Made by a program: the position numbers and the translations under genes | Notes under the pieces: generated by a model | Told to the model about the DNA's origin: nothing | The model's database searches: none | What the model saw: only the letters and a program-made list of their open reading frames with translations | Shown: one piece after another, positions 3,915 to 28,246 of the stretch | Layout of the letters: each line of letters begins with the position of its first letter | How positions within the stretch are numbered: the first letter of the stretch is position 1 | DNA from: an uncultured virus (IMG/VR IMGVR_UViG_3300042560_002070) | Taxonomy: Duplodnaviria > Heunggongvirae > Uroviricota > Caudoviricetes | IMG/VR virus record: IMGVR_UViG_3300042560_002070 | Strand: one strand, 5' to 3' | DNA length: 28,512 nucleotides

Positions 3915-4380
3915 TTTTGCTTGGAAGCAGGGGCCACTTGTGTTTGCTGATGGTCATGCGTTTCTCACTCGACCACCTGAACTACAAGAACTGGAGGAGC
4001 CGCTGTCGAAGCTTGCGTGGCTTCAGCGGCATGTGTACTGGTGGATCGGTGATACGCTGCTGACTGGAGAAAAATTCTTTGGTGATGAGATGTATCAGAT
4101 TGTTGATCCAGATATCAGTGCTGATCTATTGCAGCGATGTGTCGCCGTCAGTGCAAAGTTTCCAATGTCGCAGCGAAATACCAATCTTTCATGGAGCCAC
4201 CATCTAGCGGTGATCAAGCTAGACCCGAGGATTCGAGTTGTTGCACTTAAGAAAGCGGAGACGGAGAGATGGACGAGTCAGGAGCTTCAGAAGTACGTCA
4301 GGTCGAAATGGGGGAAGCAGGAGATGCTGGATCAATTCGAGACATCGCCGGAAGAAGATTCTGCTGGCTCACAGGGTTAA
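3907..4380 (+). CDS. LmbU-like DNA-binding protein
   Basis: WWIGDTLLTGEKFFG...R..NLSWSHHLAV...AETERWTSQELQ resembles the LmbU pattern as recalled from memory. Confidence 0.6.
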   Translation: MNDFAWKQGPLVFADGHAFLTRPPELQELEEPLSKLAWLQRHVYWWIGDTLLTGEKFFGDEMYQIVDPDISADLLQRCVAVSAKFPMSQRNTNLSWSHHLAVIKLDPRIRVVALKKAETERWTSQELQKYVRSKWGKQEMLDQFETSPEEDSAGSQG

Positions 4381-4739
4381 CTAAGGGGACTCGCCCCAAA
4401 AATTGGTACGGTGATTGGTGGCTTCAGGTGGCTCATATAAGCAGTGGATCTGGAGCGATGCACCGAGTCAACGACAGACGAGCTGTTGTCCTTTTGTGTC
4501 CACTGGCCCATGAGTGTCATGTGCATGATCGAGTAGCGATACCAACGAAACATATTAATGGTCGAGAGTACCCGACGATCGATGCTGCAAACTTAATGTG
4601 GATCAAGCAGATCATGGACCATGCGTATTACGATCGGGATTATTTGCGTCATATATGGACAGGCATGCCGCCAGAGCCTGCCCGACCAAGCAACTTCTGG
4701 CTCAACATGCTATTCGAAAATACAGGGATGAGTTTATGA
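4269..4739 (+). CDS. Hypothetical protein, possibly HNH-like nuclease
   Basis: CWLTG...VAHI...VVLLCPLAHECH His/Cys spacing; start uncertain (4269 or 4308); stop overlaps next ATG (ATGA). Confidence 0.5.
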   Translation: MDESGASEVRQVEMGEAGDAGSIRDIAGRRFCWLTGLTKGTRPKNWYGDWWLQVAHISSGSGAMHRVNDRRAVVLLCPLAHECHVHDRVAIPTKHINGREYPTIDAANLMWIKQIMDHAYYDRDYLRHIWTGMPPEPARPSNFWLNMLFENTGMSL

Positions 4740-4963
4740 GCCGAAAGAAGGATGGAGTGTCGTTGATACTCAGCATGATATATCAGGAGTTTCCGACTCG
4801 TCGTGAGTTGGGTGATGTTTATCACGAGATGGCAGATCTTTTACGCAGCCAAGATCTACCGCAGCGTGATGTAGAGAGAGTCTTACGTCTGCTACGAGTC
4901 AAATGTCAGACGTGGGGCAATGTATCGGCTGCGCTAGAAAGATGGAGCAACGAACGTGGGTAA
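4736..4963 (+). CDS. Hypothetical protein (75 aa)
   Basis: ATG 4736 overlaps the upstream TGA; its end overlaps the ssb start. Confidence 0.6.
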   Translation: MSRKKDGVSLILSMIYQEFPTRRELGDVYHEMADLLRSQDLPQRDVERVLRLLRVKCQTWGNVSAALERWSNERG

Positions 4964-5381
4964 AACAGCTATTGCAACAGTGCAGGGGCGGGTAAGTAGT
5001 GATCCGAGGATTACAGTGGCGAAGTCCGGAACAAAAGTCGCCAACATAACGCTCGGCTGGTCACACAAGGATCGAGAGGGTGAGACGAAGTGGTCAAATA
5101 TCGATGTGGTCTTCTTTGGGAAGACGGCGGAAACGGTGGAACAATATGTAGAGAAGGGTGGTGAGGTGTTTGTTTCCGGAGACCTGCAAGCGGAGAGCTG
5201 GGTCGATAAAGAGGGTAATCCGCGCTCGAAGCTATCAATCATCGGTAGTACGTTGACGCTTATGGGAAAGCGAAGTGATGACTCGGAGAGGAAGACTGAG
5301 ACCCGACCAGCCAAGCCAGCCGCTAAGACATCCAAGCCTGAAAAGCAGGAAGATGACTTTCCCGATGAAGTGCCGTTTTAG
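4956..5381 (+). CDS. ssb: Single-stranded DNA-binding protein
   Basis: OB-fold motifs VVFFGKTAE..EQYVEKGGEVFVSGDL and acidic tail DDFPDEVPF. Confidence 0.95.
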   Translation: MGKTAIATVQGRVSSDPRITVAKSGTKVANITLGWSHKDREGETKWSNIDVVFFGKTAETVEQYVEKGGEVFVSGDLQAESWVDKEGNPRSKLSIIGSTLTLMGKRSDDSERKTETRPAKPAAKTSKPEKQEDDFPDEVPF

Positions 5382-5670
5382 AGTCGGCAAGGAAGATGTT
5401 GTCGAGGTGACTCAGCATGCCCTGCTCCGTTTCTGGTTGCGGATTGACCCGCTTCCGAGCAGGGCGGATGTTGAGAAACGCATTAAGGACGAGCTTCGTA
5501 GAGGCTTTTACTTAACGCAGTGGAAACTGACTAGCGATGGACAACCTATTCTTTGTGCACACTGTAGCGGACTCAAGCTTGTTATCGCCCCCGAGGAAAG
5601 ATGTTGGATGATCTTGACTTTGATGGAGGGTAGGAAACGTGGAAGCTCCGCTAGGCGATTCCAAAGATGA
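5365..5670 (+). CDS. Hypothetical protein with TxHAxxR motif (DUF4258/RelE-like fold possible)
   Basis: VEVTQHALLRFWLR...LKLVIAP...MILTLM; start uncertain (5353 or 5365). Confidence 0.55.
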   Translation: MKCRFRVGKEDVVEVTQHALLRFWLRIDPLPSRADVEKRIKDELRRGFYLTQWKLTSDGQPILCAHCSGLKLVIAPEERCWMILTLMEGRKRGSSARRFQR

Positions 5671-6133
5671 TGTGAAGCAAGCGATCAAGGTGCTACAGAC
5701 TTGCTACCCGAAGTTGATAGTGGGGCATGAGGTGCTTGATGCACTGAAGAACAACTGGATAGTTCATGTGGCGAAGACTGGCACCAAGATCATTGCAGTG
5801 TTAGTGGCTGAGCGTGAGATGAAGGAAATCTACATTCGGCGTATTGCAGTATTACCAGAGTTCCGAAGAAAAGGTTTTGCTCGTGGTCTGGTTGGTTCTG
5901 TAGCTAGGCTCGATCATGTCGATGTGGTCACGCTGGCAGTGCCAGGATGGGATCCAGCGTCAGTTGCTTTCGCCCATCGCTGTTTCTTTCATTTGTTCGG
6001 CATAGATGGTGATTGTGATGGTCATCAGCTCTGGCGACTAAGTGCGCGAGCTAGCAGTGACACACGCAATAGGCTTGAGGAGTACTTCGCTAATCGTGTT
6101 AGTCGAAAAGGCGATTTTGGTCGCCGCTGCTAG
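5639..6133 (+). CDS. GNAT acetyltransferase (RimI-like)
   Basis: Acetyl-CoA binding motif A: IYIRRIAVLPEFRRKGFARGLV. Confidence 0.85.
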   Translation: MEAPLGDSKDDVKQAIKVLQTCYPKLIVGHEVLDALKNNWIVHVAKTGTKIIAVLVAEREMKEIYIRRIAVLPEFRRKGFARGLVGSVARLDHVDVVTLAVPGWDPASVAFAHRCFFHLFGIDGDCDGHQLWRLSARASSDTRNRLEEYFANRVSRKGDFGRRC

Positions 6134-6881
6134 CTATGTCGAAGAGTTGACCTATCTTAGATCCCGGCACCCAGGATTCGAGCGGTATGTCTCGTCTGAG
6201 CAGTTCACGGAGTATCTCGCGTCGAATGGCGTGAAGGGTAAGCATGATGTTAGACGGTTCGGTGATTCTACCTAGCCTGTTGGATTTCAGGTTAATCATG
6301 GTTTCTTCGTTGGCGATCTCCTCGGCAGTCTTGCCTTCGATTCTTTTTGCCACGATCCATCTTGACCTTTGCTCCATGTCCGATAGTATGGATATCACTA
6401 CGGCTGCTAGATCATCGATGTCGTCGTAGTAGCTGTCCTCGTAGACGTTAGATTCTTTGAGTTCAGCGACAATCGACTTAACGCCATCCTCGTCAAGCAG
6501 AAATGAATTTGCGTCCGAGATGTATTCCGCTGGGGCTCGCTTGCCAAACGTGCTGCACGTTTTGACAACAAAGTCAGAGCACTTTCTTGGGATTACTCGT
6601 GAGAGAAAAGAGGAGAGACGACCGCGATCTGGATGGAAGTTTTTCATCGCCAGATAAGCCTGCGAAATTGCCTCGTGGAATAGATCGTCTGTGGTGAGTT
6701 GTTTTGGTTTATGGTGCCTGTGGCAGAGTGTCCATATCCAGTGAGCCTGAGAACATATCAGCGTTTCCATGGATTGAGCGTCACCAGCCAGGGCTTTTTC
6801 GTGACAATCCTTCTCTTGTTCGGCGGTTAGGCGTGGTGCTTTCCTGCCAGCTAGAAACTCAGCAACCGGATCTTTCTTCAT
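6099..6881 (-). CDS. RNA polymerase sigma70-family factor
   Basis: Region 1.2 (DPVAEFL...RLTAEQE), region 2 (DDLFHEA...AMKNFHPDRGRLSSF), region 4-like (MEQRSRWIVAKRIEGKTAEEIA). SD GGGAGGT (complement of 6891-6897) lies inside the recombinase gene. Confidence 0.88.
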   Translation of the reverse strand: MKKDPVAEFLAGRKAPRLTAEQEKDCHEKALAGDAQSMETLICSQAHWIWTLCHRHHKPKQLTTDDLFHEAISQAYLAMKNFHPDRGRLSSFLSRVIPRKCSDFVVKTCSTFGKRAPAEYISDANSFLLDEDGVKSIVAELKESNVYEDSYYDDIDDLAAVVISILSDMEQRSRWIVAKRIEGKTAEEIANEETMINLKSNRLGRITEPSNIMLTLHAIRREILRELLRRDIPLESWVPGSKIGQLFDIASSGDQNRLFD

Positions 6882-8484
6882 GTCTAAGCGACCTCCCTGC
6901 GTGTTTGTGTATTGTCGCCAGTCGGATTCCAGTTCCGTCGCAACGTCAATGAGTATCGAAGCTCAGATCGATCGAGCTATACAGTACAAGCATTATAAGA
7001 TCAAAGATGTTCAGTGGTCAACCGATTGCTATCCAGAGGGTACTCCTGGCTTTTTTGTAGATCGTGGTGTGAGCGCCTACGGAAACAGTAAGCTTGCCAA
7101 GCGACCTGCTGGCTCACGATTGCTAGAGAAGCTTCAAAAGGGAGATCATTTATTAGTGTGGTCGGTGGACAGGATGTTTCGAAACCTCGGTGACTTCGGC
7201 ACTGTGATGGGGCAATTCGCTAAGCGTGGAATCATTGTTCACTTCATTCACGAGGGTATCGACCTCTCGACAGCTTCAGGGCAGCTCAAGGCTGCGATCT
7301 GTGCAGTGCTGGCTGAGCACTGGTCTAGGATGATCTCCTTCCGTACTAGGGAAGCCAATGCTATTAAGGCAGCTCGTCAGGGTAAGGCGATCCCGCCCAA
7401 GCCTAAGGCTCCAGTTAACATGAATGTCGATGAGGTGGTGGAGTTTCGTGAGCACGACCAGATCGCAAGTCTTGTGGCTGCTACACCTAGCCGTAAAAAG
7501 AAACGTAAGGAGGCTCAGCAGGTGACCCGTACCTGGGGTTATATCCGTGTGTCGAGTACTGGTCAGGTGGAATCCGGATTGGGACTCCAGTACCAGCGAG
7601 AGAGAGTGGAAGAGGACCTTAAGGCGATTGGAGGTGAGTGCCTGGGTATTGTGGCAGACGAAGCGGTGTCGAGTTTTAAGGTGCCATTTGCGGAACGCCC
7701 TGGCGGTAAACGTATCCTCGGTGAGGCTAAGCGTGGCGACTGCGTGGTGGTGTATCGCTTCGATCGTATCTTTCGTTCTCTTCAGGACATGGTCAATACG
7801 CTGAAGGAGTTTCATCGCAGGGGAATCATCCTGCGATTGATTGAGGAGGGGATACGCACAGACCAAAATGACGGTGACTGGTATCTGGGTTTACTGGGTA
7901 CATTTGCAGAACTTGAGAGCACAATGAAGGGTGAGAGGATTTCTGAAGCAAAGATGAAGATGAAGAGGGAAGGGCTTAAGTACACAAAGCATTTGATGTG
8001 CTACAAGTCTATGTGCGTGGAGGGACAAAACCGGTTTGTCCTAAGCGGCAGCAATATGGTTCGTTTCCGAATGTCTCATATACTATGGAAGGAAATGAAG
8101 TTCAGCAAGAACGACTGTGCTCATATCGTTAACGCATTGTTTTCTCAGAATCGTCGCAAGCAATGGGCTAATCACGTCTTTGAGGATCGCCGCGAAAAAC
8201 GTAAGGGATTGCTTGTCCCCAATCAGATTGGTGTCACCTACTACGCTTGGCCGAAGATGATCGAATCAATCGGTCTCGTCGCCATTAATCGCTTCGATAA
8301 GATAGCCAGAAAGGAATTGGCAACAGACATCTCGGAGCTGACTCTCCTCAGGCTCAAGCGTGCGGGGGTATCTCTTGACCGACTCAGAGATTGGTTCGTG
8401 ATCATGGGTACTGACCGACGAATCCCCGCCGCGCTTCATCTCCGAGAAGGTGACGATCTTTTGGCTTCGATGGAGAATCTTTAG
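6880..8484 (+). CDS. Serine recombinase with two tandem resolvase/invertase catalytic domains
   Basis: Domain 1: YCRQS (Ser15), DRGVSA, RP, VWSVDRMFRN. Domain 2: GYIRVS (Ser225), DEAVSS, ERP, VYRFDRIFRS. Each is followed by a helix-E-like segment; ~160 aa unrecognised C-terminus. Confidence 0.92.
   Translation: MSKRPPCVFVYCRQSDSSSVATSMSIEAQIDRAIQYKHYKIKDVQWSTDCYPEGTPGFFVDRGVSAYGNSKLAKRPAGSRLLEKLQKGDHLLVWSVDRMFRNLGDFGTVMGQFAKRGIIVHFIHEGIDLSTASGQLKAAICAVLAEHWSRMISFRTREANAIKAARQGKAIPPKPKAPVNMNVDEVVEFREHDQIASLVAATPSRKKKRKEAQQVTRTWGYIRVSSTGQVESGLGLQYQRERVEEDLKAIGGECLGIVADEAVSSFKVPFAERPGGKRILGEAKRGDCVVVYRFDRIFRSLQDMVNTLKEFHRRGIILRLIEEGIRTDQNDGDWYLGLLGTFAELESTMKGERISEAKMKMKREGLKYTKHLMCYKSMCVEGQNRFVLSGSNMVRFRMSHILWKEMKFSKNDCAHIVNALFSQNRRKQWANHVFEDRREKRKGLLVPNQIGVTYYAWPKMIESIGLVAINRFDKIARKELATDISELTLLRLKRAGVSLDRLRDWFVIMGTDRRIPAALHLREGDDLLASMENL
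6881..6898 (+). repeat. Left inverted site flanking the recombinase gene
   Basis: TGTCTAAgcgacCTCCcT matches the reverse complement of 8470-8487 (TGTCTAAagattCTCCaT) at 12/18 positions, the first 7 exactly. Confidence 0.7.
7506..7524 (+). promoter_or_regulatory. Internal SD and in-frame GTG before recombinase domain 2
   Basis: TAAGGAGG (7506-7513), 8 nt spacer, GTG (7522), reading M-T-R-T-W-G-Y-I-R-V-S. Confidence 0.55.
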
Positions 8485-8628
8485 ACACTCCATTGCTACC
8501 GTTACTCGGGCAGGCAGAACGGACTCTGCTTGCTCATTCATTAGACCTTCGATCATCTCTTGCGTCTCATTGACGCTTCCCATTACGGCATCCATTGCTT
8601 GCAGCAGGTAATCTTCATTAGCACTCAT
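8266..8628 (-). CDS. Hypothetical protein crossing the right recombination site
   Basis: Start overlaps the HTH gene stop; acidic N-terminus; last 219 nt are antisense to the recombinase. Confidence 0.55.
   Translation of the reverse strand: MSANEDYLLQAMDAVMGSVNETQEMIEGLMNEQAESVLPARVTVAMECLKILHRSQKIVTFSEMKRGGDSSVSTHDHEPISESVKRYPRTLEPEESQLRDVCCQFLSGYLIEAINGDETD
8468..8495. repeat. Right inverted site; imperfect palindrome around a TT core
   Basis: CgATGGAG-aa-TCT-[TT 8481-8482]-AGA-ca-CTCCATtG; contains TTAGACA at 8481-8487. Confidence 0.7.
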
Positions 8629-8830
8629 TAAGAGTCTCCAAAAAGCGATAATAGGCTTCTACTGTCGTCTTCATTCCTTGAGGCGTAACAAATGTCTCCA
8701 GCGTATGTACCTTGCCATCGACACCCATAACGCCATCTTTGACTAGGCGATAGACGGCATTGGTGCTGTACCCAATCTCTTTAGCTACTTGGCGAATCGA
8801 GAGCAGCTTTTCCTGTCGCGGATTGATCAT
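8618..8830 (-). CDS. DUF1580-like / excisionase-like HTH protein
   Basis: E.LLSIRQVAKEIGYSTNAVYRLVKDGV.G...LET....G..TTVEA..RF; GGGAGG SD upstream. Confidence 0.75.
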   Translation of the reverse strand: MINPRQEKLLSIRQVAKEIGYSTNAVYRLVKDGVMGVDGKVHTLETFVTPQGMKTTVEAYYRFLETLNEC

Positions 8831-8951
8831 TGTTGTAGTTTTCCTCCCATTATTGTTCCGCTTTACCCAGAACTGATTTTTCTTGCCATCAAAAAAAATG
8901 TAGTTGCTGAATCATGCGGTAGAGGATCACCCCTACCCCCAAGGAATCAGT
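8831..8951. promoter_or_regulatory. Divergent intergenic control region
   Basis: Non-coding gap between the leftward HTH/sigma unit and the rightward structural genes; SDs on both sides; no convincing -35/-10 pair. Confidence 0.5.
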
Positions 8952-10151
8952 ATGTCTACAGACCTGCAAAAGATGATCGAGGAGTCGCTAGCCAAACGGC
9001 AAGCGGCTGCGCTGGCCAGTCAGTCGTCAGATGAAAACGAAGATGTAAGTGAGGTTGAGCAGATCGAGGAAGTGCAGGATGTCGAGCAACCTGCCGCCGA
9101 GGAGCCCGCTGAACAAGCTGCTCCTATGTCTCCGCTTCGCGAAGCACTAGCTAAGCATAACGTCGCTGCCGATCAGTTGTCTGATGACGATCTATCAAAA
9201 CAATTGGCTGCTTTAATAGCCGAGCGAGACGCTGAAAAGAAGCGAGTCGCTGAGCTGGAGGAGACTGCACGCCGAGCGCAGGAAGCTGCCGAGCAACTGC
9301 GATATCAGGTGTCACAGCCACAGGCACCACAGCAACCTCAGTCGCCAGAGAATAACGCACAGAAGCTTAAGAAGTGGGAGCGGGTCGAGATAGATCCCCA
9401 GCTTACTAAGCTCTGCAAGTATGACGATGCTACCTCGCGATTTCTGCCAGCACTAGACGGTGATGCAGATTCGATTCGAGCAGCTCAGTCGCTTAACGCA
9501 GCGGTTGCCGAGCAGCAGCGTCGTAGTCAGCTTCTGATAAACGATCCAGTATCGGCGTTTAGTGAAGCTGGTCTGATGGATCAGTTCAGTCAGCTTGTTG
9601 AGTCGCGATTTAAGCAGTTTCAAGAACAACTTGCGACCACGCTTACACAGCGGCAGCAGCAGGCTTTGCAGGCTCGTCAAGAACAGGAATCTGAGCTAAG
9701 GGCACAGAAGTTTTTTGATGATCACAAGGCTGAGTTTTTTAAGCTCGGTGCTGACGGAACGATCATGAAGGGTCTTGATGGTCGTGATGTTGTGAGTGAA
9801 CGAGGCGAACTGTTTCGTCAGAAGGCTCAAGAGATTCGTCAGCAGTATGGTAATGCGATTGCTGATGAGTTGGTGATTGCAGACTTGGCTTACAAGCTAA
9901 TGCCCCCACTGCCCAAGGAGGCAACTCCTGAGGAAGCAGCGAAGACCAAGAAAGAAAAAGTTCAAGAAAAGAAGAACCAGTTTGTTGAGAAGGCTCGGCA
10001 AACAACCAATTCGGAACGGAAGTCAATCGGTGTGTCGCAGGCGTTGGTACGTCCAGCACCTCAGTCTGATCGTCCAATGTCTTTTCGAGAGATGCTGTTG
10101 ACGGATCCGGACAACGCTGAAGCGCTTGGGGAATTTTATCAAGGCAATTAA
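8952..10151 (+). CDS. Putative capsid scaffolding protein
   Basis: Acidic N-terminus, Q/E/A-rich coiled coils, directly upstream of the capsid gene; AAGGA SD before ATG 8952. Confidence 0.65.
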   Translation: MSTDLQKMIEESLAKRQAAALASQSSDENEDVSEVEQIEEVQDVEQPAAEEPAEQAAPMSPLREALAKHNVAADQLSDDDLSKQLAALIAERDAEKKRVAELEETARRAQEAAEQLRYQVSQPQAPQQPQSPENNAQKLKKWERVEIDPQLTKLCKYDDATSRFLPALDGDADSIRAAQSLNAAVAEQQRRSQLLINDPVSAFSEAGLMDQFSQLVESRFKQFQEQLATTLTQRQQQALQARQEQESELRAQKFFDDHKAEFFKLGADGTIMKGLDGRDVVSERGELFRQKAQEIRQQYGNAIADELVIADLAYKLMPPLPKEATPEEAAKTKKEKVQEKKNQFVEKARQTTNSERKSIGVSQALVRPAPQSDRPMSFREMLLTDPDNAEALGEFYQGN

Positions 10152-10170
10152 GGACAGGAGTTAAAGTGCA

Positions 10171-11283
10171 ATGCCTGAGGCAACACTAGCAATTCGTAAC
10201 ACAGCGCCAAAGTTTCTTAAAGGCGCTTCGGACCAGACGATCCGCAATCGTTTCTGGTTAGCTTATCTGCAAAAAGAGGGTCGCATTCTTTATAACCAGG
10301 GTGGTGTCGCCTGCAACTGGAATGTTCGCGCTCGACAACCAGACACTCGTAACCATGCGTCTGGTGTGGGTGTTATCTATTCGCAAACTAACTCGTTCGA
10401 ACAGTTGACGGTTCCTGTCGCTGGCATCATCGGCACTCAGGCTTTGGACCTCAAGGTTCAAATGATGAACAAAGAGCCTTTAGCTATTGTTGATCTTTAC
10501 AGCGATGCGATGGAATCGTTGCTTGCGGCAGTTGGTCATCGATTGTCGTCGGAGTTGTTTATTCGCAATACGGGTAACGAAAATCAGCTCATTGGTATCG
10601 ATACCCCAATGGTTCCGGATGGATCAGTTTCTGTTAACGATTTAGTGGCACTGCCCTCATCGTCAGCAGCCTACGGTGGTAAGTTGGTTCGTCCTGGTTC
10701 CATCGGTGGCGCTTGGAGTGCTAACCTTGCTGCTGCGGATCGTCCTTCGAGCCTGCTAACCAATGACTGGCCTCTCGGATCTGGCACACCTGACTTCGAT
10801 TACATTACGCCAAAACTCCTCAATTATCGATCTAACAGATGGGGTACTGGTGGTTCTACTTGGTCAGATAACTGCGAGCACGTTATGCGTCGCGGAAAGT
10901 CGTGGATCATGAATTTGAGTGGGGCTACCAAAACCCCTACGCTGCACATTTTGTCGCAGGAGTTGTACGACCAGTTTCTTGATCGCTTGAGCGTTCGTGA
11001 GCGATTGATGGTGAGTGATTACGGCAAAGCTCTTGGCTTCGGTGACAACGTACTTACCTATGGTGGTGCGATGGTTATGCCGGATTACGACTGTCCAGCA
11101 GGTTCTGGATACGCCGTCAACGCAGCCGAGATGAGTTTGTTTAGTTTGCACTCGGACTTGTTCTACAGCGTTGGACCCGACTTCAATAACACCGCTTTGG
11201 CTACCGAAGTCTTGGTGGGTTTTTGGGGTAACATGCGTTTCAATCCAAAACATGTTGCTAAATACGGCGCTTTTGGAACCTAA
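10171..11283 (+). CDS. Major capsid protein
   Basis: 370 aa; follows the scaffold; capsid-like C-terminus (TPTLHILSQELY...TYGGAMVMPDYDCP...FWGNMRFNPK); AGGAG SD. Confidence 0.8.
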   Translation: MPEATLAIRNTAPKFLKGASDQTIRNRFWLAYLQKEGRILYNQGGVACNWNVRARQPDTRNHASGVGVIYSQTNSFEQLTVPVAGIIGTQALDLKVQMMNKEPLAIVDLYSDAMESLLAAVGHRLSSELFIRNTGNENQLIGIDTPMVPDGSVSVNDLVALPSSSAAYGGKLVRPGSIGGAWSANLAAADRPSSLLTNDWPLGSGTPDFDYITPKLLNYRSNRWGTGGSTWSDNCEHVMRRGKSWIMNLSGATKTPTLHILSQELYDQFLDRLSVRERLMVSDYGKALGFGDNVLTYGGAMVMPDYDCPAGSGYAVNAAEMSLFSLHSDLFYSVGPDFNNTALATEVLVGFWGNMRFNPKHVAKYGAFGT

Positions 11284-11333
11284 TGATCTAACAAGTTAAT
11301 AACGCTGAATAAAACAAATAAGGAGATTTTATC

Positions 11334-11861
11334 GTGGGCATGGTTCAAATGAATTTTTATCCTCTCGGGCGGACGGCACCTGCTACCGAATTGCCTGAGT
11401 TGGTTGGTGGTGTTCACACTTTTCAGCATGTCGACTACAGCTTGCCTGAGTCGCAACGAACGATCATTTCCAACCAGGAAATTATTGCGATCTGGGTGAA
11501 GAATGATTCGGGTGGAACATTGAGCGCCAGCCAGATTGTTACCTGGAAATCTGGTTCTGCCGGTACTCTTATCGGTGGTGTTACGGCTGATGCTGCTACA
11601 GGCTGTGGTGCAGTCGATCCGTTCCTAACCACGACTGTTGCTAACGGTGAGTTCTTCTACATCATCGTGCGTGGTCCTGGCCGAGGAATCTCGGCTGGTT
11701 CTGTTTCCGCTAATGCCATCATCATTCCGGCAGCTTCGGGTCGCTTTAATACAGTTACCAACGATGCAGCAGGTTCTCTAAATGCTTGCGGCAGGCTTAA
11801 TGTCGCTTCCACGGCTGCTGCTCAGGTTCGCGATGTTATTTGGGCATTCCCTGGTTACTAA
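11334..11861 (+). CDS. Putative capsid decoration/cement protein
   Basis: G/A/T-rich beta protein right after the capsid gene (VANGEFFYIIVRGP); AAGGAG SD. Confidence 0.6.
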   Translation: MGMVQMNFYPLGRTAPATELPELVGGVHTFQHVDYSLPESQRTIISNQEIIAIWVKNDSGGTLSASQIVTWKSGSAGTLIGGVTADAATGCGAVDPFLTTTVANGEFFYIIVRGPGRGISAGSVSANAIIIPAASGRFNTVTNDAAGSLNACGRLNVASTAAAQVRDVIWAFPGY

Positions 11862-12236: not shown

Positions 12237-12854
12237 ATGACTTCAGGACTACCTGTCACTCGCACTACATCACAGTGCTACGAATGCAAGCAAGTGTTTT
12301 CTAATCGGCACATCGTTGGCGGTTATTGCCAAGAGTGTCACGAAATACGGCGAGATCGAATCGCTAGGGAGCTAGAGATGTCGGATCGTAGACAGACGGC
12401 ACAATTTTCCAGAGAGCTTCTCTCTCGTATCAAGAACGTCGGTTCCGATAAGCAAGTTCTTGACCAAGTGTTCGCCAAGTTTACTGAGTTGATTGGTGGC
12501 CCTGATGGATTGGCTACCAAGCTAAAAGAAGACTTTGATAAGGTGCGTGGCGACAACCTGTCTCCTAAGGAGCAAGTGATGTTCGAACGCAAGGACTCAG
12601 TGATCGTCAAGTATTGGCAGCTAATCCTAAGTCTACAGGAAAAATTAGACGACCGGAATAATGTGGATGCAAGTGGTCTGACCGACGAAGACCTCCAAGC
12701 AACCTTGGCTCAGCTCGCTGCTCAGCTCATCCGTACTGATGCTGATTTTCGTACACAGGTCTTGAGTATTACGAACAACGCTCAAGAGGAAGAACCTGAG
12801 GATGTACCTTTTGAGACTCGTCCAGCTACGGACGAAGAACCTAGCTGGGATTGA
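12237..12854 (+). CDS. Zn-finger protein, candidate terminase small subunit
   Basis: CYEC...CQEC; C-terminal DASGLTDEDL; immediately upstream of terL; GAGGT SD. Function is assigned by position only. Confidence 0.5.
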   Translation: MTSGLPVTRTTSQCYECKQVFSNRHIVGGYCQECHEIRRDRIARELEMSDRRQTAQFSRELLSRIKNVGSDKQVLDQVFAKFTELIGGPDGLATKLKEDFDKVRGDNLSPKEQVMFERKDSVIVKYWQLILSLQEKLDDRNNVDASGLTDEDLQATLAQLAAQLIRTDADFRTQVLSITNNAQEEEPEDVPFETRPATDEEPSWD

Positions 12855-12856
12855 CT

Positions 12857-14599
12857 ATGAGCTTAAACCAACTTTCGAGTCGAGAAGCCGCAGCACTGGT
12901 TGAAGCGGCACGCAGAAGAACAACCGGACTCGAACTGTTTCGGGCTCAGCCTCATCAGGATCCTATTTTTGAAAGTAACGCCAGAGAGCTTCTAGTGCGT
13001 GGTGGTGTGCGAGCAGGCAAGAGTCTTTCACTCGCTGTTCTGACTGCTGCAATAGCAACGGATACGTATATCACGCTGTCAGATGGTCGTCAGATAAGGG
13101 CTAGGCGACCTCATCAAATTGGTAGACCACTCACAATATGGATCATTGGCTACGATCAGCGACATATCGGTGAGACAATCTTTCGGCTTCTGTTTCGTCC
13201 TGGCTTGTTCAAGATCATACGCGACCGTTCTACAGGACAATGGCGAGCGTTTAATCAGGATGATCCTGACGATGCTGCTCGATCGGAGCAGGTGCAGCCA
13301 AGCTATCCGATCATCCCTAATAGGTACATTAAGCCAGGATCTTGGGATTGGGAAAACAAAGGCAACCACGAGTTTAAAAAGGTTGTTATCTGGAACCCTG
13401 TCACAAAAGAGACTCTTGCTGAGATTTACGCCTACTCAAGTAAAGCAGAACCAAAACAGGGCGACCCAATAGATTTATGCTGGATCGACGAGGCAATCAA
13501 ATATCCTCAACACTATTCAGAGTGGCAGTCTCGTTTGGCTGACCGTCGAGGAAGGCTGTACTGGTCTAGCTGGCCTAGAGCCAATAATGCTGCCCTGAGA
13601 GCGCTGACAGCGAGAGCCAAGGAACAGGATTCGAACGACCCTAATCCGATGGCCGGAGAGGTCATCTTGCAGACCAGCCAAAATGCTCAGCTTGACCCAC
13701 AGGGTAAGAGAGAACTTCTGTCGGGGTTCACAACAGAAGAACTGGCTTCTCGCGATCGTGGTGAATACTCCCTCGACCAGCTCAAGATGTACCATCTGTT
13801 TGATCGCAACTTCCATTGTGCGATTTACCCAGAAGGTGTCGACGATGAAATCTCCAAGGTGCTAAGGGCTACTAATGGCCAGCCGCCCGTGGACTGGACT
13901 AGAGAAATGATTCTCGATCCAGGTACTAACAATCCTGCTGTGCTTTTTTGCGCAATACCGCCACCCAGGTTTGGTGAGTTTTATGTTGTGTACGACGAGC
14001 TTTACCCTGGTCGTCGTGATGCCGATCAACTTGCTCCTATGATCAAAGCCAAGATGCAGGGTTATCCGTTCTATCGGTTTATTATTGACCAAAGAGCCGG
14101 TAAGCAGACGACAATGGGATTCTCGATGACGGTGGCAGACAACTATGCCAGAGCTTTCAAGAACCATCACATACAGTCTGTTGTGACGGGCAATCACTTT
14201 GTGTGGGGCAATGCAAACGTCGAATCAAGAATCATGCGTTTGCAGTCGTGGATGCACATCAATGAAAAGTCCGGATCCTATCCGTACTTAAGGATCGTCA
14301 CCGATCGATGTCCGGTTCTGTGCAAGCAACTGGAGGATTATGTCAAGGAAGAAAAGCAAGACAACGAAATAGGCGATCGACCGGCCAAAGGTCAGAAGAT
14401 CGACTTAAGTGTCGGGCTCGAATACTGGGCTGGAAGTTTTCCAAAGTGGTTCCCGGTTGCCGGGAAGAATATAGGGGGAGGCTCAGCTTCCCTTCAATTG
14501 TTCAATCAGTTGCGAGCTATAGAGAGAAGCAAGAGCAAGAAGGCGGACAACTCGATTGAGCTTGGTAATAGTTACTCCCCATATAAGGTGCAAGTATGA
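12857..14599 (+). CDS. terL: Terminase large subunit
   Basis: Walker A GGVRAGKS, Walker B LCWIDEA, RNase H-like nuclease start ILDPG. Confidence 0.9.
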   Translation: MSLNQLSSREAAALVEAARRRTTGLELFRAQPHQDPIFESNARELLVRGGVRAGKSLSLAVLTAAIATDTYITLSDGRQIRARRPHQIGRPLTIWIIGYDQRHIGETIFRLLFRPGLFKIIRDRSTGQWRAFNQDDPDDAARSEQVQPSYPIIPNRYIKPGSWDWENKGNHEFKKVVIWNPVTKETLAEIYAYSSKAEPKQGDPIDLCWIDEAIKYPQHYSEWQSRLADRRGRLYWSSWPRANNAALRALTARAKEQDSNDPNPMAGEVILQTSQNAQLDPQGKRELLSGFTTEELASRDRGEYSLDQLKMYHLFDRNFHCAIYPEGVDDEISKVLRATNGQPPVDWTREMILDPGTNNPAVLFCAIPPPRFGEFYVVYDELYPGRRDADQLAPMIKAKMQGYPFYRFIIDQRAGKQTTMGFSMTVADNYARAFKNHHIQSVVTGNHFVWGNANVESRIMRLQSWMHINEKSGSYPYLRIVTDRCPVLCKQLEDYVKEEKQDNEIGDRPAKGQKIDLSVGLEYWAGSFPKWFPVAGKNIGGGSASLQLFNQLRAIERSKSKKADNSIELGNSYSPYKVQV

Positions 14600-21358: not shown

Positions 21359-22345
21359 ATGAAGCGGCGAGATAAATTAGTTGATGAGATTGTCGATCGG
21401 TATCCTAATGTTGGTAATAGAACACTGGCTCGCCTGCTAGTCGAGCAGTATCCAGAGTTGTACACCACTGAGTCTGCACGAAGTCTCATTCGCTATCGCT
21501 TTGGGGTTATGGGGAATGGGAATCGAAAAAAGAAAGGTGCGGTAGTAGCTCGTAAGCAGCCCTCCAAGCTAATACTACCTAAGGGCATCCATCAGGTTTT
21601 ACCTCCTGCCAAGTACACCAAGAAAGGTGATTGGCTCATTACTGGCGATTGGCATGTGCCGTATCACGATGAGGTTTCGATCGAGTCGATGATACGGTTT
21701 TGCTTCGATAACAAAATAACCAACATCTTGCTTAACGGCGATGGCGTAGATTTCTATCGACTATCTGATTACGTCTCAGATCCGAGGATGGCGAGTCCCT
21801 CTGATGAGCTTAATACGATGCACGAAATCTTGAAAGGATTGAGAAAGTACTTTCGTGGCCATCGAGTTTACAAGATTGGAAACCACGAAGATCGCTATGA
21901 GAGATATCTATACCAGCGGGCTAGTGCGGTAGTGGGCATATCGGCATTCCAGCTTGATCAGGTGTTGAGGCTTAATGAGCTGAAGTTTGATTACATAACC
22001 AGCAAGCAGCATGTAATTATCGGTGACCTGCCTGTGTTCCATGGACACGAGCTACCCAAAGGTGCTGGTTCACCGGTAAATCCTGCTAAGACGCTTTACG
22101 GAAAAATCGGATTCAGTGGAGTGGTTAGTCATCATCACTTTTCCAGTGAGCATGTTTCTACGGAGGGGCTTAGCAAGAGGATTCATCGCTGCTTCTCAAT
22201 TGGCTGTATGTGCCAAATGATCAAGGGTTATTCACCAATCAATAACTGGAATCACGGTTTTGGTCGGGCGCGTGTTGATGCGAATGGCAGCACAGAGTTT
22301 CGCAACTACATCATTGATCGCGGCAAGATTGTGTGCAACGTATGA
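21359..22345 (+). CDS. Calcineurin-like metallophosphoesterase
   Basis: GDWH, NGDGVD, GNHE, FHGHE, SHHH; GGAGG SD before ATG 21359. Confidence 0.9.
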   Translation: MKRRDKLVDEIVDRYPNVGNRTLARLLVEQYPELYTTESARSLIRYRFGVMGNGNRKKKGAVVARKQPSKLILPKGIHQVLPPAKYTKKGDWLITGDWHVPYHDEVSIESMIRFCFDNKITNILLNGDGVDFYRLSDYVSDPRMASPSDELNTMHEILKGLRKYFRGHRVYKIGNHEDRYERYLYQRASAVVGISAFQLDQVLRLNELKFDYITSKQHVIIGDLPVFHGHELPKGAGSPVNPAKTLYGKIGFSGVVSHHHFSSEHVSTEGLSKRIHRCFSIGCMCQMIKGYSPINNWNHGFGRARVDANGSTEFRNYIIDRGKIVCNV

Positions 22346-24736: not shown

Positions 24737-27700
24737 ATGTCGCTTGGCGTTATCTCTCCGATCCGCAACAAAGGTCTGTACTCTGATTGGCTGTCTGCTG
24801 CACCGTTGGCTACGTCGATGCTGACTATCGATACCAGTGGTAACGTGGGTAGCCAAGCTATTCCTGTTGCGGCATGGGGGAGTATCACTGGAACGCTAAG
24901 CAGTCAAACTGATTTGCAAAATGCGTTAGATGCGAAGTTGTCGCTTTCGGGCGGAACGATGACGGGGGCTTTAAGTGGGACAAGTGCTACGTTTAGCAGT
25001 ACCGTAACCATTCCAGCTATCACTGGCTCTAGCAATCTTATCTACGTTGCACAAAACCAAACATTTAGTTGGGAGTATGACTCAACCAATACCAATCCAG
25101 CACTGCGATTTACTTGGGGTGGTGCTGCTACAACTCTTTGGGGTAGTAGTTCAGCAGTCAACATATCTGTTCAAGGCACTAACGGTTTTCGAGTAGCGGC
25201 AGGAACAACCAATTTAGCCGGAACGCTTGGTCTGGGATCTGTATCGTCACCAACTGCATTCCTGCGTTCAGATGGTAGTAATACCATAGACATTCGTAAT
25301 AGCACCAACGCCCAACGCCTCAATCTCTACGGCACTTACACAGACGCTTCTAATTATAGAAGATTACATCTTTCTTCTACAACTGCCGGAGCGTTTACAT
25401 TAGGTGTTGAAGGATTGGGAACTGGGGCAAGTGGCAATACTCTAGCTATCGGTAATAGCTTAACTGTAAATGGTATTGTGACTCCAACAGTAGGAACCAA
25501 TACTAGTGGTATAAATATTATCTCTAGTAGTTATCTAAATAATGAATGGAGCGATATTCGTTTTGAATCTTCTTTTACATCTGGCTGGAAGATAGCAAGA
25601 TTAAGAGCCATAGCTAGAAATGGATATGCTGGTGCCTTAGCGTTTCATTATAAATCCGGGGACGGTAATCCAAATACAGACACTACAGAAGGTATGCGAA
25701 TAACAGAAACTGGGTTGGTTACCTTTGGTGGAACCACCTCATCTTTTCCAGCAATTAAACGCAATGCTGCTGCAATCAATTTTCGCCTTGCCGATGATAG
25801 CGGAGATGCAGAAATTACGGCTGGTACAGGCAGATTTAGTGGTGCGATTTATAATGTAGGGCCAATATATAATACGAGTAGTGCAAGTAGCAATGTTTAC
25901 GCTATGTATGCTAGTCAGTATGGCTATGCATTTATGCGTTTTGATAATTGGAAAACAATTACTTTCAATGCTGGTGAGTCTACTGCCTACGAGCATTCAA
26001 TAAGTATTGCAGGCTGGAGATTAAATACAAATAGCAATGGAAGCGCTTATTTACATACTGATGCCGCTAATATATTTGCACAACGCAATAGCACCAACGC
26101 CCAAACGCTTCGTATCTACGGCACCTACACCGATGCCAGCAACTATCGCAGATTATACATATCCTCTACTACAGCAGGTGCGTTTACTCTCGGCGTAGAG
26201 GGAGCAGGAACGGGTGCGAGTGGGAATACGCTTACGGTTGCTAATGCAACTACGTTTAGTAGTACGGTAACTTTTATTGGTGGTGATTATTTCACCCCAA
26301 GCTGTTATCTGGGTTCCAATATACGTCTATATGGGCCGAGTAATTTTACAGTAGCAATACTTGGCGAGAACTGTTCTTCATTAGATCAATCAAATTTCAA
26401 ATTTAGACAACAAGTTGGATTGGGTTGGAGTAGCACAAGTGATGCAACAGCATCAGCAGATGTTTATTTAAGGAGAAACGCTGCCGGTCAACTTGATGTT
26501 CGCGGCGACAGTGGATTGCGTGTTCGTAATCTTGCCAACACAGCCGATGCCGCAATAACAGCAGGGGCGGGGACGTTTAGTAGTTATGTCTACACGACTG
26601 CCGATGCTGCCGCTACTTTGCCTTTGAGGATTCGCGGTGCTGCTTCTCAATCAGCAAACTTAACAGAGTGGCAAAGTAGCACTGGGGGAGTTTGGATACG
26701 TGTTACATCGAATGGTACGATAAGAAGTGCAACGGGAGATCAATACACACCAACGATTTCTAATGCAAGTTGGGGGCCGGGACATGGTATTATTGTAAAT
26801 GGTACGGCTTCGTGTGCTTTTGCCCAAAACAATGACGTTGTCGCTCAAGTAAATGGTTCTAGCGGTGTTTTTGAATTTTTTAGACCGATGCAAGTATACG
26901 TCCAGGGCACGGGTACTTTTGCAACTATTACTGCTGATACTTCCGATACACTTGCATTTCGTCGCAGCACCAACACCCAACGCTTTAATCTTTACAACAC
27001 CTTCACCGACACCTCCAACTACATCCGTCAATCACTCTCTTTCACAACCTACTCCTCCACCGTCCATGCACAGCTAGCAGCAGAAGGTGCTGGCACAGGA
27101 GCAGTAAACGTACCGTTTGTAATTACGCCAAGGGGAACAGGTGCGTTTATCGTTGGGCCAATGCCTGATGGTACTGCAACAGGCGGGAATGCTAGGGGTG
27201 CCGGTGCCGTTGATATACAAACTGAAAGAAATGCTGCGACTCAAGTTGCTAGTAATAGTTATTTGATAGCAATTGGTTCTAGGTGTACTGCAACGGGGAA
27301 TAGTTCCGGTGGTACAGTTGCAATTGGCAGAAACGTAAACGTATCTGATTCCCTTGGTGGAGCTTTTGGTGCGGGTCTTAATACAACTGTAACAGGCTAT
27401 AGAGGCGTAGCTATCGGAGCAGGTGCAACTGCCGGTGCTGATAGTATTGCTATTGGAACCGGCAGTTACGCAAGCAACAATAATGCAATTTGCATTGCAG
27501 GTTCCACTAGTAGATGGAATGGTACAACTTACTGGAAATTGGAAAACAAAACTATCGGCCAAAGTTACCTTAATTCTTTATCAGGATCAGGTTTTCTTTC
27601 CACAACTCCAACAATAAGAACAACAAATAGTTCATCGCAAATCCTAGATGTATCAATCACATCATCGTTTATTGCATCAAGACAAAGACATCGTGGTGCT

Positions 27701-28246
27701 ATTATTTATGCTAAATTTTCAGTTTTTGCTGTTAGATCAGATGGTGCTATAAATAAATATGATCGTCGTGTTGTGATAAAAGATGTTGCCAGTCTTGATG
27801 GAACAACTTCTACATTAAGTATATTAGCAACAGATACTATTGGTACTGATATAACAGAAATAAGTGGAGCAAGTATAAGCATTGTTGCTAACTCTGGAAG
27901 TAAAACACTCCAAATAAATGTAACTGGTGAGCCTTCATATGTTGTAACAGGTAATTCAACAACTGATGTTTTAACTGCTGTTGGTCATCCGTTTGCAAAC
28001 AATGATATTGTCGTCTTTACAGCGATAACTGGTGGTGCTGGTTTATCGACAAACATAAATGGAGTGTATTATGAACCGCAATATAAAGTAATCAATGTTT
28101 CTGGAAACGACTTCCAATTGACAGCGGTTGGTTCTGGAACCACCCCTATAAATTTTACAACAGATATAACCGCCGGAACAATATGTAGGCCAATTGTTTG
28201 GTCATCAGAAGGTGCTGAGTTTCATGTAATTGCAGGTGGATACTAG
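24737..28246 (+). CDS. Tail fibre / receptor-binding protein
   Basis: 1169 aa, G/S/T/A/N-rich; WGSITGTLSSQTDLQNALDAK; GGTMTG; internal repeats; YadA-head-like AIG repeats. Confidence 0.85.
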   Translation: MSLGVISPIRNKGLYSDWLSAAPLATSMLTIDTSGNVGSQAIPVAAWGSITGTLSSQTDLQNALDAKLSLSGGTMTGALSGTSATFSSTVTIPAITGSSNLIYVAQNQTFSWEYDSTNTNPALRFTWGGAATTLWGSSSAVNISVQGTNGFRVAAGTTNLAGTLGLGSVSSPTAFLRSDGSNTIDIRNSTNAQRLNLYGTYTDASNYRRLHLSSTTAGAFTLGVEGLGTGASGNTLAIGNSLTVNGIVTPTVGTNTSGINIISSSYLNNEWSDIRFESSFTSGWKIARLRAIARNGYAGALAFHYKSGDGNPNTDTTEGMRITETGLVTFGGTTSSFPAIKRNAAAINFRLADDSGDAEITAGTGRFSGAIYNVGPIYNTSSASSNVYAMYASQYGYAFMRFDNWKTITFNAGESTAYEHSISIAGWRLNTNSNGSAYLHTDAANIFAQRNSTNAQTLRIYGTYTDASNYRRLYISSTTAGAFTLGVEGAGTGASGNTLTVANATTFSSTVTFIGGDYFTPSCYLGSNIRLYGPSNFTVAILGENCSSLDQSNFKFRQQVGLGWSSTSDATASADVYLRRNAAGQLDVRGDSGLRVRNLANTADAAITAGAGTFSSYVYTTADAAATLPLRIRGAASQSANLTEWQSSTGGVWIRVTSNGTIRSATGDQYTPTISNASWGPGHGIIVNGTASCAFAQNNDVVAQVNGSSGVFEFFRPMQVYVQGTGTFATITADTSDTLAFRRSTNTQRFNLYNTFTDTSNYIRQSLSFTTYSSTVHAQLAAEGAGTGAVNVPFVITPRGTGAFIVGPMPDGTATGGNARGAGAVDIQTERNAATQVASNSYLIAIGSRCTATGNSSGGTVAIGRNVNVSDSLGGAFGAGLNTTVTGYRGVAIGAGATAGADSIAIGTGSYASNNNAICIAGSTSRWNGTTYWKLENKTIGQSYLNSLSGSGFLSTTPTIRTTNSSSQILDVSITSSFIASRQRHRGAIIYAKFSVFAVRSDGAINKYDRRVVIKDVASLDGTTSTLSILATDTIGTDITEISGASISIVANSGSKTLQINVTGEPSYVVTGNSTTDVLTAVGHPFANNDIVVFTAITGGAGLSTNINGVYYEPQYKVINVSGNDFQLTAVGSGTTPINFTTDITAGTICRPIVWSSEGAEFHVIAGGY
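25295..25444 (+). repeat. Tail-fibre module copy 1
   Basis: RNSTNAQ...YGTYTDASNYRRL...GASGNTL; 44/50 aa identical to copy 2. Confidence 0.9.
26084..26233 (+). repeat. Tail-fibre module copy 2
   Basis: Shares exact AATAGCACCAACGCCCAA (25298-25315 = 26087-26104) with copy 1. Confidence 0.9.
26960..27030 (+). repeat. Tail-fibre module copy 3 (diverged, partial)
   Basis: RRSTNTQRFNLYNTFTDTSNYIR. Confidence 0.75.

Follow-up and report, generated by a model that had tools for sequence, protein, structure and literature searches.

One open reading frame with two recombinase catalytic domains

In a 28,512-nucleotide stretch of DNA from an uncultured virus of the Caudoviricetes (IMG/VR record IMGVR_UViG_3300042560_002070; hereafter the window), we analysed an open reading frame (ORF) of 534 amino acids plus stop codon at positions 6880..8484 of the + strand, which encodes a serine recombinase with tandem catalytic domains. 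The window is phage DNA and carries genes for a helicase, an exonuclease, a single-stranded DNA-binding protein and a GNAT protein, followed by a sigma-70-like gene in divergent orientation, the recombinase gene, a pair of small - strand genes, and major head and portal genes. The ORF is a real phage serine recombinase and belongs to a large uncharacterised family. Serine recombinases, familiar from textbooks and of major use in genome engineering, act as tetramers in which the serine of each subunit cuts one strand and half of the complex turns by 180 degrees before the strands are religated. To our knowledge, all characterised members have one catalytic domain per chain and use four chains per reaction.

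The original prediction, made from the sequence without database searches, held that one polypeptide carries two catalytic domains, each with the R-x-S, D-x-x-V-S, RP and DRxFR motifs, joined by a Pro/Lys-rich linker and followed by a C-terminus lacking a zinc ribbon, and each of these points was borne out by the analyses below. As expected beforehand, the Pfam family Resolvase (PF00239) matched two stretches of the full-length protein (E 8.4e-53), and both scored when scanned alone against a cut-off of 23.3 bits: residues 1-200 reached 86.1 bits (E 3.2e-24; residues 8-167 on profile positions 1-143 of 145) and residues 201-380 reached 98.9 bits (E 3.7e-28; residues 220-365 on positions 3-143 of 145). 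The remaining residues 371-534, scanned alone, gave no Pfam match better than E 0.1. Domain 1 (residues 8-167; 6901..7380, + strand) contains the motifs YCRQS15, DRGVS65, R75-P76 and DRMFR101, and domain 2 (residues 217-365; 7528..7974, + strand) contains YIRVS225, DEAVS264, R273-P274 and DRIFR299. Residues characteristic of the superfamily are therefore present twice (Y11/R13/S15, R98 and R101; Y221/R223/S225, R296 and R299), with conserved arginines that we take to correspond to R8, R68 and R71 of gamma-delta resolvase, and the putative nucleophiles are Ser15 (codon 6922..6924, + strand) and Ser225 (codon 7552..7554, + strand). With only 30% identity between them (47/158 positions, E 2e-19), the two domains are not the product of a recent duplication.

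An AlphaFold2 model of the protein, built on 24 relatives (mean predicted local distance difference test score, pLDDT, 74.0; predicted template-modelling score, pTM, 0.41), folds both catalytic cores, each with the long helix E typical of these enzymes (residues 132-166 and 332-363), and pLDDT means over ten-residue blocks were mostly 71-93 in domain 1. Between the cores, the linker (residues 168-216; 7381..7527, + strand) is basic, rich in Pro and Lys and modelled as disordered, with pLDDT <50 for residues 174-209. Foldseek searches with this model returned 46 matches at E≤0.001, including Bxb1 integrase, gamma-delta and Tn3 resolvases, TP901-1, Gin and Sin. Likewise, all 11 sequence matches among PDB entries at E≤0.001 were serine recombinases; Tn3 and gamma-delta resolvase, Gin and TP901-1 integrase stand at the top and match domain 2 by sequence.

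The model contains a single folded non-catalytic domain per chain, located at the C-terminus (residues 366-511; 7975..8412, + strand) and made up of a beta-hairpin and helices followed by a helical extension, the part after the hairpin being wholly helical. Its modelled fold is similar to that of the recombinase domain in large serine recombinases. Bxb1 (9iu2_A) was the top structural match of both the whole model and the C-terminal model, and a profile alignment with a type of protein of ~227 amino acids (P0182) covered domain 2 and continued through the PF07508 region of that type (columns 216-439, probability 99.96). Pfam found no PF13408 zinc ribbon, PF07508 or HTH_7 in the protein itself, and no cysteine is invariant or nearly so in an alignment of 24 sequences.

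The protein shares features with several known systems and differs from each of them. Small serine recombinases (gamma-delta/Tn3, Gin/Hin) share the catalytic fold, the YxRxS and DRxxR motifs and the long helix E, give the best sequence matches among solved structures and fill rank 2 onward among fold matches of the full model; however, they combine one catalytic domain with HTH_7 in ~180-200 amino acids, whereas the tandem protein has two catalytic domains and no HTH_7 in its 534 amino acids. Large serine recombinases (Bxb1, PhiC31, A118/LI, TP901-1) are likewise phage-borne, and the modelled domain that follows domain 2 here resembles their recombinase domain, but they possess a zinc-ribbon/coiled-coil domain, which controls the direction of their reaction, whereas the protein described here lacks it and has an extra catalytic domain in front. 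The closest single-domain relatives among shorter proteins are the uncharacterised metagenomic Resolvase plus Recombinase-domain proteins of ~227 amino acids (P0182 and others), which differ in having one catalytic domain and at most 42% identity over 27% of the query, and none of which is a split half. CcrA/CcrB also rely on two non-identical serine-recombinase subunits that cooperate, but there the subunits are independent large serine recombinases of full length, each equipped with DNA-binding domains of its own. The tandem protein is not a member of that group, scoring 74.1, 72 and 26.2 bits against the NCBIfam models CcrB, CcrC and CcrA (cut-offs 900, 900 and 700), nor were the equivalogs XisF, Mpi and IS607 TnpA reached (further scores against cut-offs 66.6/375, 48.7/272 and 18.8/110 bits).

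The tandem arrangement could be an artefact if an assembly or frameshift error had joined two adjacent recombinase genes, or if translation began at Met24 and domain 1 lay outside the gene. The public gene call of this protein does start at Met24 (511 amino acids, and so without Ser15), the Atlas entry likewise begins at residue 24, and no Shine-Dalgarno motif precedes ATG 6880. Against this, the gene is covered without indels by contigs from four lake-water runs of as many studies, one of these contigs, of 7421 bp, spanning 4291-11711 and hence the whole gene with 0 gaps, and another bridging 6483-8006 without difference, such that independent runs show one gene and not two separate ones. (The nearest genome record, G001, a 23.5-kb fragment 99% identical in the recombinase gene, is not independent evidence.) The frame is open upstream through YCRxS in all eight close viral loci (L001-L008), and the frame of the nucleophile motif is open, in a single frame through both domains, in 10 of 11 viral loci (YCRxS, or YxRVS in L009 and L010; L011 was mis-anchored), while in L003, L004, L005 and L008 the sole ATG/GTG/TTG lies upstream of the YCRxS motif. 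Changes in the N-terminal segment are dominated by synonymous ones: over the 24 codons after codon 2, the window and L003 have 4 identical, 11 synonymous-only and 9 amino-acid-changing codons, and the YCRQSDSSSVATS stretch of L002 differs from the window by synonymous changes only. In addition, both full domains are present in 137 family members. Contiguous contigs together with the open frame in related loci therefore exclude that the ORF arose from faulty assembly or a frameshift error; judged by these sequence comparisons, translation from a codon ahead of the first nucleophile is strongly favoured over Met24, and we regard the artefact explanation as a whole as extremely improbable. Many relatives are also called from an internal Met, which drops the first nucleophile (the equivalent of window positions 6880-6948), and these calls are a systematic annotation error for the tandem family.

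Conservation and history of the tandem family

A word-based search found 36 proteins at E≤0.001, the top 24 of which were aligned; they are 444-554 amino acids long and span both domains, save for some truncated N-termini. An exhaustive phmmer search against 1.84 billion cluster representatives yielded 117 proteins at E≤1e-30. Two Resolvase stretches were present in 97 of the 98 best representatives scanned with Pfam, the exception (P0077) being a C-terminal fragment of 214 amino acids, and PF07508, PF13408, HTH_7 or any other DNA-binding family was found in none of the 98. The original prediction would have been refuted had this architecture been both common and characterised. Common it is, in sequence catalogues, but the literature, judged by titles and the starts of abstracts, offered no description of two catalytic domains in one serine-recombinase chain. 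Catalogue names of the relatives are generic ('DNA invertase Pin-like site-specific DNA recombinase'), and the Resolvase-Resolvase pair is very probably already listed in domain-architecture databases.

Conservation was assessed in an alignment of 170 sequences (the query, the first 24 word-search matches and 145 new phmmer proteins), with counts taken over filled columns. In domain 1, the nucleophile Ser15 was conserved in 139/139 sequences, R13 in 134/134, R75 in 165/165, R98 in 166/166 and R101 in 167/167, followed by S65 (163/165), R155 (166/169) and D61 (158/163). In domain 2, R223, S225, Q239, S264, R273 and R296 were each conserved in 168/168, with D295 in 166/168, R299 in 162/168 and E346 in 164/167, and this in a family that reaches down to ~25% identity. 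Since selection appears to have kept both active sites, both most likely cut DNA.

The same alignment bears on a different explanation, in which domain 1 does not cut in vivo and acts as a built-in regulator or scaffold of domain 2, perhaps holding an inactive dimer until synapsis, with four chains needed per reaction; resolvase dimers at accessory sites, which do not cleave, would be the nearest likeness. Domain 1 has no DNA-binding domain of its own and is followed by the disordered linker. It is also relaxed at two positions that presumably correspond to gamma-delta D67 and E118, namely D97, which is Asp in 123/166 sequences, and W148, which is E in 43, K in 41, Y in 23 and W in 11 of 169, and its helix E, in the lineage studied here, no longer carries two of the acidic residues in the usual AExER...ER pattern (W148 and F154). 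However, every sequence with a filled column has the nucleophile serine and all the key arginines of domain 1, down to the most distant members, which is hard to explain if the domain were purely structural, and we consider a non-cleaving domain 1 unlikely.

The history of the fusion was examined in a tree of 137 domain-1 and 137 domain-2 sequences with seven single-domain outgroups, from which proteins without either full domain were excluded. All 137 domain-2 sequences formed one clade (support 0.91); the domain-1 sequences were not resolved as a clade, yet never intermixed with domain 2. The fusion is therefore old and predates the spread of the family. No close split form was found among proteins shorter than 293 amino acids, the best match there having 42% identity over 27% of the query (E 4e-20).

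Genomic neighbourhood and candidate recombination sites

Upstream of the recombinase gene lies the divergent sigma-70-like gene (6099..6881, - strand; Sigma70_r2, E 1.4e-07; phrog_351), which also stands beside the recombinase in L002, L003 and L006. The start codons of the two genes (ATG at 6880 and, on the - strand, at 6881) overlap on one CATG at 6879-6882, and the GGAGG of the sigma-like gene sits within recombinase codons 4-6. Loci L003, L004, L005 and L008 have no recombinase start codon at the position of ATG 6880, and their only start is a TTG 45 nt further upstream; with this TTG start, the two genes would overlap at their 5' ends, each with its promoter inside the other gene.

Downstream, a 120-amino-acid ORF (8266..8628, - strand) overlaps the last 219 nt of the recombinase gene and has counterparts of 118-133 amino acids in L002, L003, L006 and L030 (30-52% identity); it gave no family match, and either it is a true gene that overlaps in convergent orientation or it merely mirrors the conservation of the recombinase. 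Next to it, convergent with the recombinase, is a gene for a 70-amino-acid helix-turn-helix (HTH) protein (8618..8830, - strand), which is kept in the same four loci, has a strong GGAGG ahead of its start and shows weak matches to HTH_17, HTH_3 and AbiEi_4 (E ~0.003-0.007, below cut-offs). This protein is a possible regulator or directionality factor. In the interval from the HTH gene to a scaffold-like gene (8831-8951), the stretches TATTGTTCCGCTTT and GAACCATA..GC.AGAGA.CCCC are conserved in four diverged relatives and are probably promoter or leader elements; for the scaffold-like gene itself, a start at ATG 8952 is more likely than one at TTG 8904. A contig of run X7 has 16 differences within 330 nt of 8338-8669 and is nearly identical to the window elsewhere; the divergent stretch covers the 3' end of the recombinase gene, the 120-amino-acid ORF and the start of the 3' end of the HTH gene, and has the appearance of a local mosaic or a patch of recombination.

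The order sigma-like gene, recombinase, 120-amino-acid ORF, 70-amino-acid HTH gene, scaffold-like gene and capsid gene is kept in L002, L003 and L006, and partly in L030. More broadly, neighbourhoods of the tandem gene agree in that it lies upstream of a capsid-gene homologue in all 14 tandem loci compared (the window, L001-L011, L030 and L036), including the distant loci L009, L010, L011 and L036, which have two Resolvase stretches each and in which 1.4-1.8 kb separate the gene from the capsid homologue, which follows it on the same strand. Locus searches with smaller alignments found three loci and one locus. The major head protein (10171-11283) and a conserved 582-amino-acid protein (12851-14599) had no tblastn match in 50,697 GenBank phage records, and the latter, with no Pfam or PHROG match, is probably the large terminase. 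As for the recombinase, 464 GenBank phage records match it and none covers 80% of it. The phage group, which is uncultured and from freshwater, appears to be without a cultured relative, and 23 of 24 listed lake-water runs, from 22 studies, contain the window stretch or part of it. Further along the window, a 162-nt direct repeat (25295-25456 and 26084-26245; 71% identical, 789 nt apart) lies inside an ORF of 1169 amino acids (24737-28246) that gave no family match and probably encodes an internally repeated, tail-fibre-like protein.

The constant position near the head genes could also suit a quite different enzyme, in which a single chain makes both strand cuts of one site and remains covalently bound there, as a site-specific double-strand nuclease or end-protecting protein that would make or process genome ends, and not a recombinase. 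Two active sites per chain would suffice for a double-strand cut, the gene precedes the capsid homologue in every tandem locus compared, and one related record has direct terminal repeats, though its recombinase is single-domain. But phages with the same head genes carry single-domain recombinases. The recombinases of L013, L014, L016 and L025 have one Resolvase domain and 296-363 amino acids, three of them with an N-terminal extension of 70-136 amino acids, and that of L014 aligns to domain 2 and the C-terminal domain (query 217-464). These four phages share with the tandem phages a terminase-like protein, and in addition the capsid homologue (L013, L014 and L025) or the portal (L014 and L016); in L013, L014 and L025 the single-domain gene lies ~2-3 kb from the capsid homologue and, differing in this from the tandem loci, in opposite orientation relative to the head genes. 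Moreover, judged from contigs alone, neither molecule ends nor loose ends pile up near the tandem gene, and we know of no precedent for a serine-recombinase-like double-strand nuclease or end protector. Taken together, this explanation is very improbable.

Four half-sites that differ from one another had been proposed at the two ends of the gene. The strings are present at 6877-6896, over the start codon, and at 8472-8491, over the stop codon, but their best 16-nt inverted match is 11/16, and of 200 pairs of 80-mers drawn at random from the window, 79 did as well or better; in L002, L003, L006, L007 and L030 this match is absent from the corresponding positions, the best matches there differing in sequence and being no better than controls. 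The element GCGACCTCC corresponds to recombinase codons 4-6 (R-P-P), and its reverse complement holds the GGAGG located 10 nt upstream of the sigma-like ATG, so that its conservation is explained by this Shine-Dalgarno motif; the pattern TGTCTAANNNNNCTCC matches only the two places from which it was derived, and the count is circular. With a chance-level match that is not conserved, these places were rejected as recombination sites. Elsewhere, the longest inverted pair in the window (8881-8907 and 22302-22328, 74% complementary) is within chance for 10-nt seeds in 28.5 kb, an alignment of 8821-8960 with relatives showed no evident palindromic site, and the window contains no tRNA or tmRNA gene or fragment.

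Evidence on integration came from related viral records and bacterial genomes. No tyrosine integrase was found in five related viral records, one of them judged 100% complete. The tandem gene was found on one GTDB contig, from a Porticoccaceae metagenome-assembled genome (MAG), whose outer stretches, compared by their ORFs, hold many short ORFs at one end and a same-strand gene array at the other and may include bacterial flanks. Within the limited depth of these searches, no attP/attB or host integration site was identified and no provirus form was seen.

A proposed two-chain mechanism and its implications

Starting from the architecture, fold, conservation, family size and synteny described above, we infer a mechanism in which each chain would be a dimer held together covalently, with one DNA-binding domain, and a pair of chains would form the four-serine tetramer with both domains cutting, a proposal to which we give about an even chance of being right. 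One chain would supply both subunits of the usual site-bound dimer, and two chains, not four, would assemble the tetramer, in which four strands are cut and exchanged by rotation. Because there is one DNA-binding domain per chain, the site would be read asymmetrically, with the C-terminal domain on one half-site and the other held by domain 1 and the basic linker, domain 1 being placed by its partner domain and the linker. A covalent pseudo-heterodimer acting on asymmetric sites, as first suggested, is plausible and fits one DNA-binding domain for two catalytic domains. Should the rotating interface run between the linked domains, the tether would have to cross the tetramer after a half-turn, and repeated rotation would be limited; with both domains on one side of it, each chain would bridge both DNA partners.

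Several observations weigh against this two-chain mechanism. The tether must stretch across the tetramer if the linked domains flank the rotation interface, the pairing of the domains is not resolved by the full model at its pTM of 0.41, and D97 and W148 of domain 1 are relaxed as described above. A window-wide repeat search found no inverted or direct repeat near the gene that stands out. Contigs of the four runs contained no recombination joints, although contigs drop rare inverted or excised forms, and no provirus form was found among the five viral records (four 'linear' and one with terminal repeats), which does not by itself exclude integration. In addition, only one of 400 sampled genomes of the class to which the Porticoccaceae MAG belongs gave a tandem match at E≤1e-35, and this was that MAG itself.

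The two chains could also pair in parallel, domain 2 with domain 2 on a symmetric specific site, bound through the two C-terminal domains, and domain 1 with domain 1 on a loose target. Such a pair of chains would already be a complete tetramer linking a specific site to loosely defined DNA, in the manner of a transposase or a low-specificity integrase. Such pairing would keep an ordinary symmetric site for the part that bears the DNA-binding domains, both domains have a full helix E, and the basic linker, which across the family has 24-70 amino acids (median 36) and a median net charge of +3, could hold non-specific DNA. IS607-type serine transposases illustrate that low target specificity is possible in the superfamily. 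On the other hand, we found no multiple insertion sites or genomic insertions and no terminal repeats or transposon-like ends around the gene, which stands at a fixed place in the phage genome, and parallel pairing seems to us distinctly unlikely.

Returning to the two-chain mechanism, the role of the protein is probably the phage's own site-specific recombination, whether integration/excision or the resolution of replicated genomes; its constant place next to a small HTH gene is reminiscent of an integration cassette, and no other recombinase was seen. The fuller picture of a natural single-chain recombinase, with two chains per tetramer, a one-sided reading of the site and a tether that limits rotation to a single half-turn, is put forward tentatively, as somewhat less probable than not.

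What is new here is the recognition of a conserved, apparently doubly active family and its implications, and not the first sighting of such a sequence. For annotation, the family is a pitfall, as gene calls from an internal Met remove the first nucleophile from catalogue sequences, and for phage ecology the recombinase gene marks an uncultured freshwater phage group without relatives among GenBank phages. Two active sites under selection with half the usual number of DNA-binding domains raise the questions of how the second half-site is gripped, whether the tether restricts rotation, and whether the sites are asymmetric. The tandem family amounts to a natural version of a 'single-chain dimer', and if the single-chain reading is true, it would make up a new serine-recombinase class, with a test of the rotation model built into the protein, and would offer genome engineering a compact scaffold.

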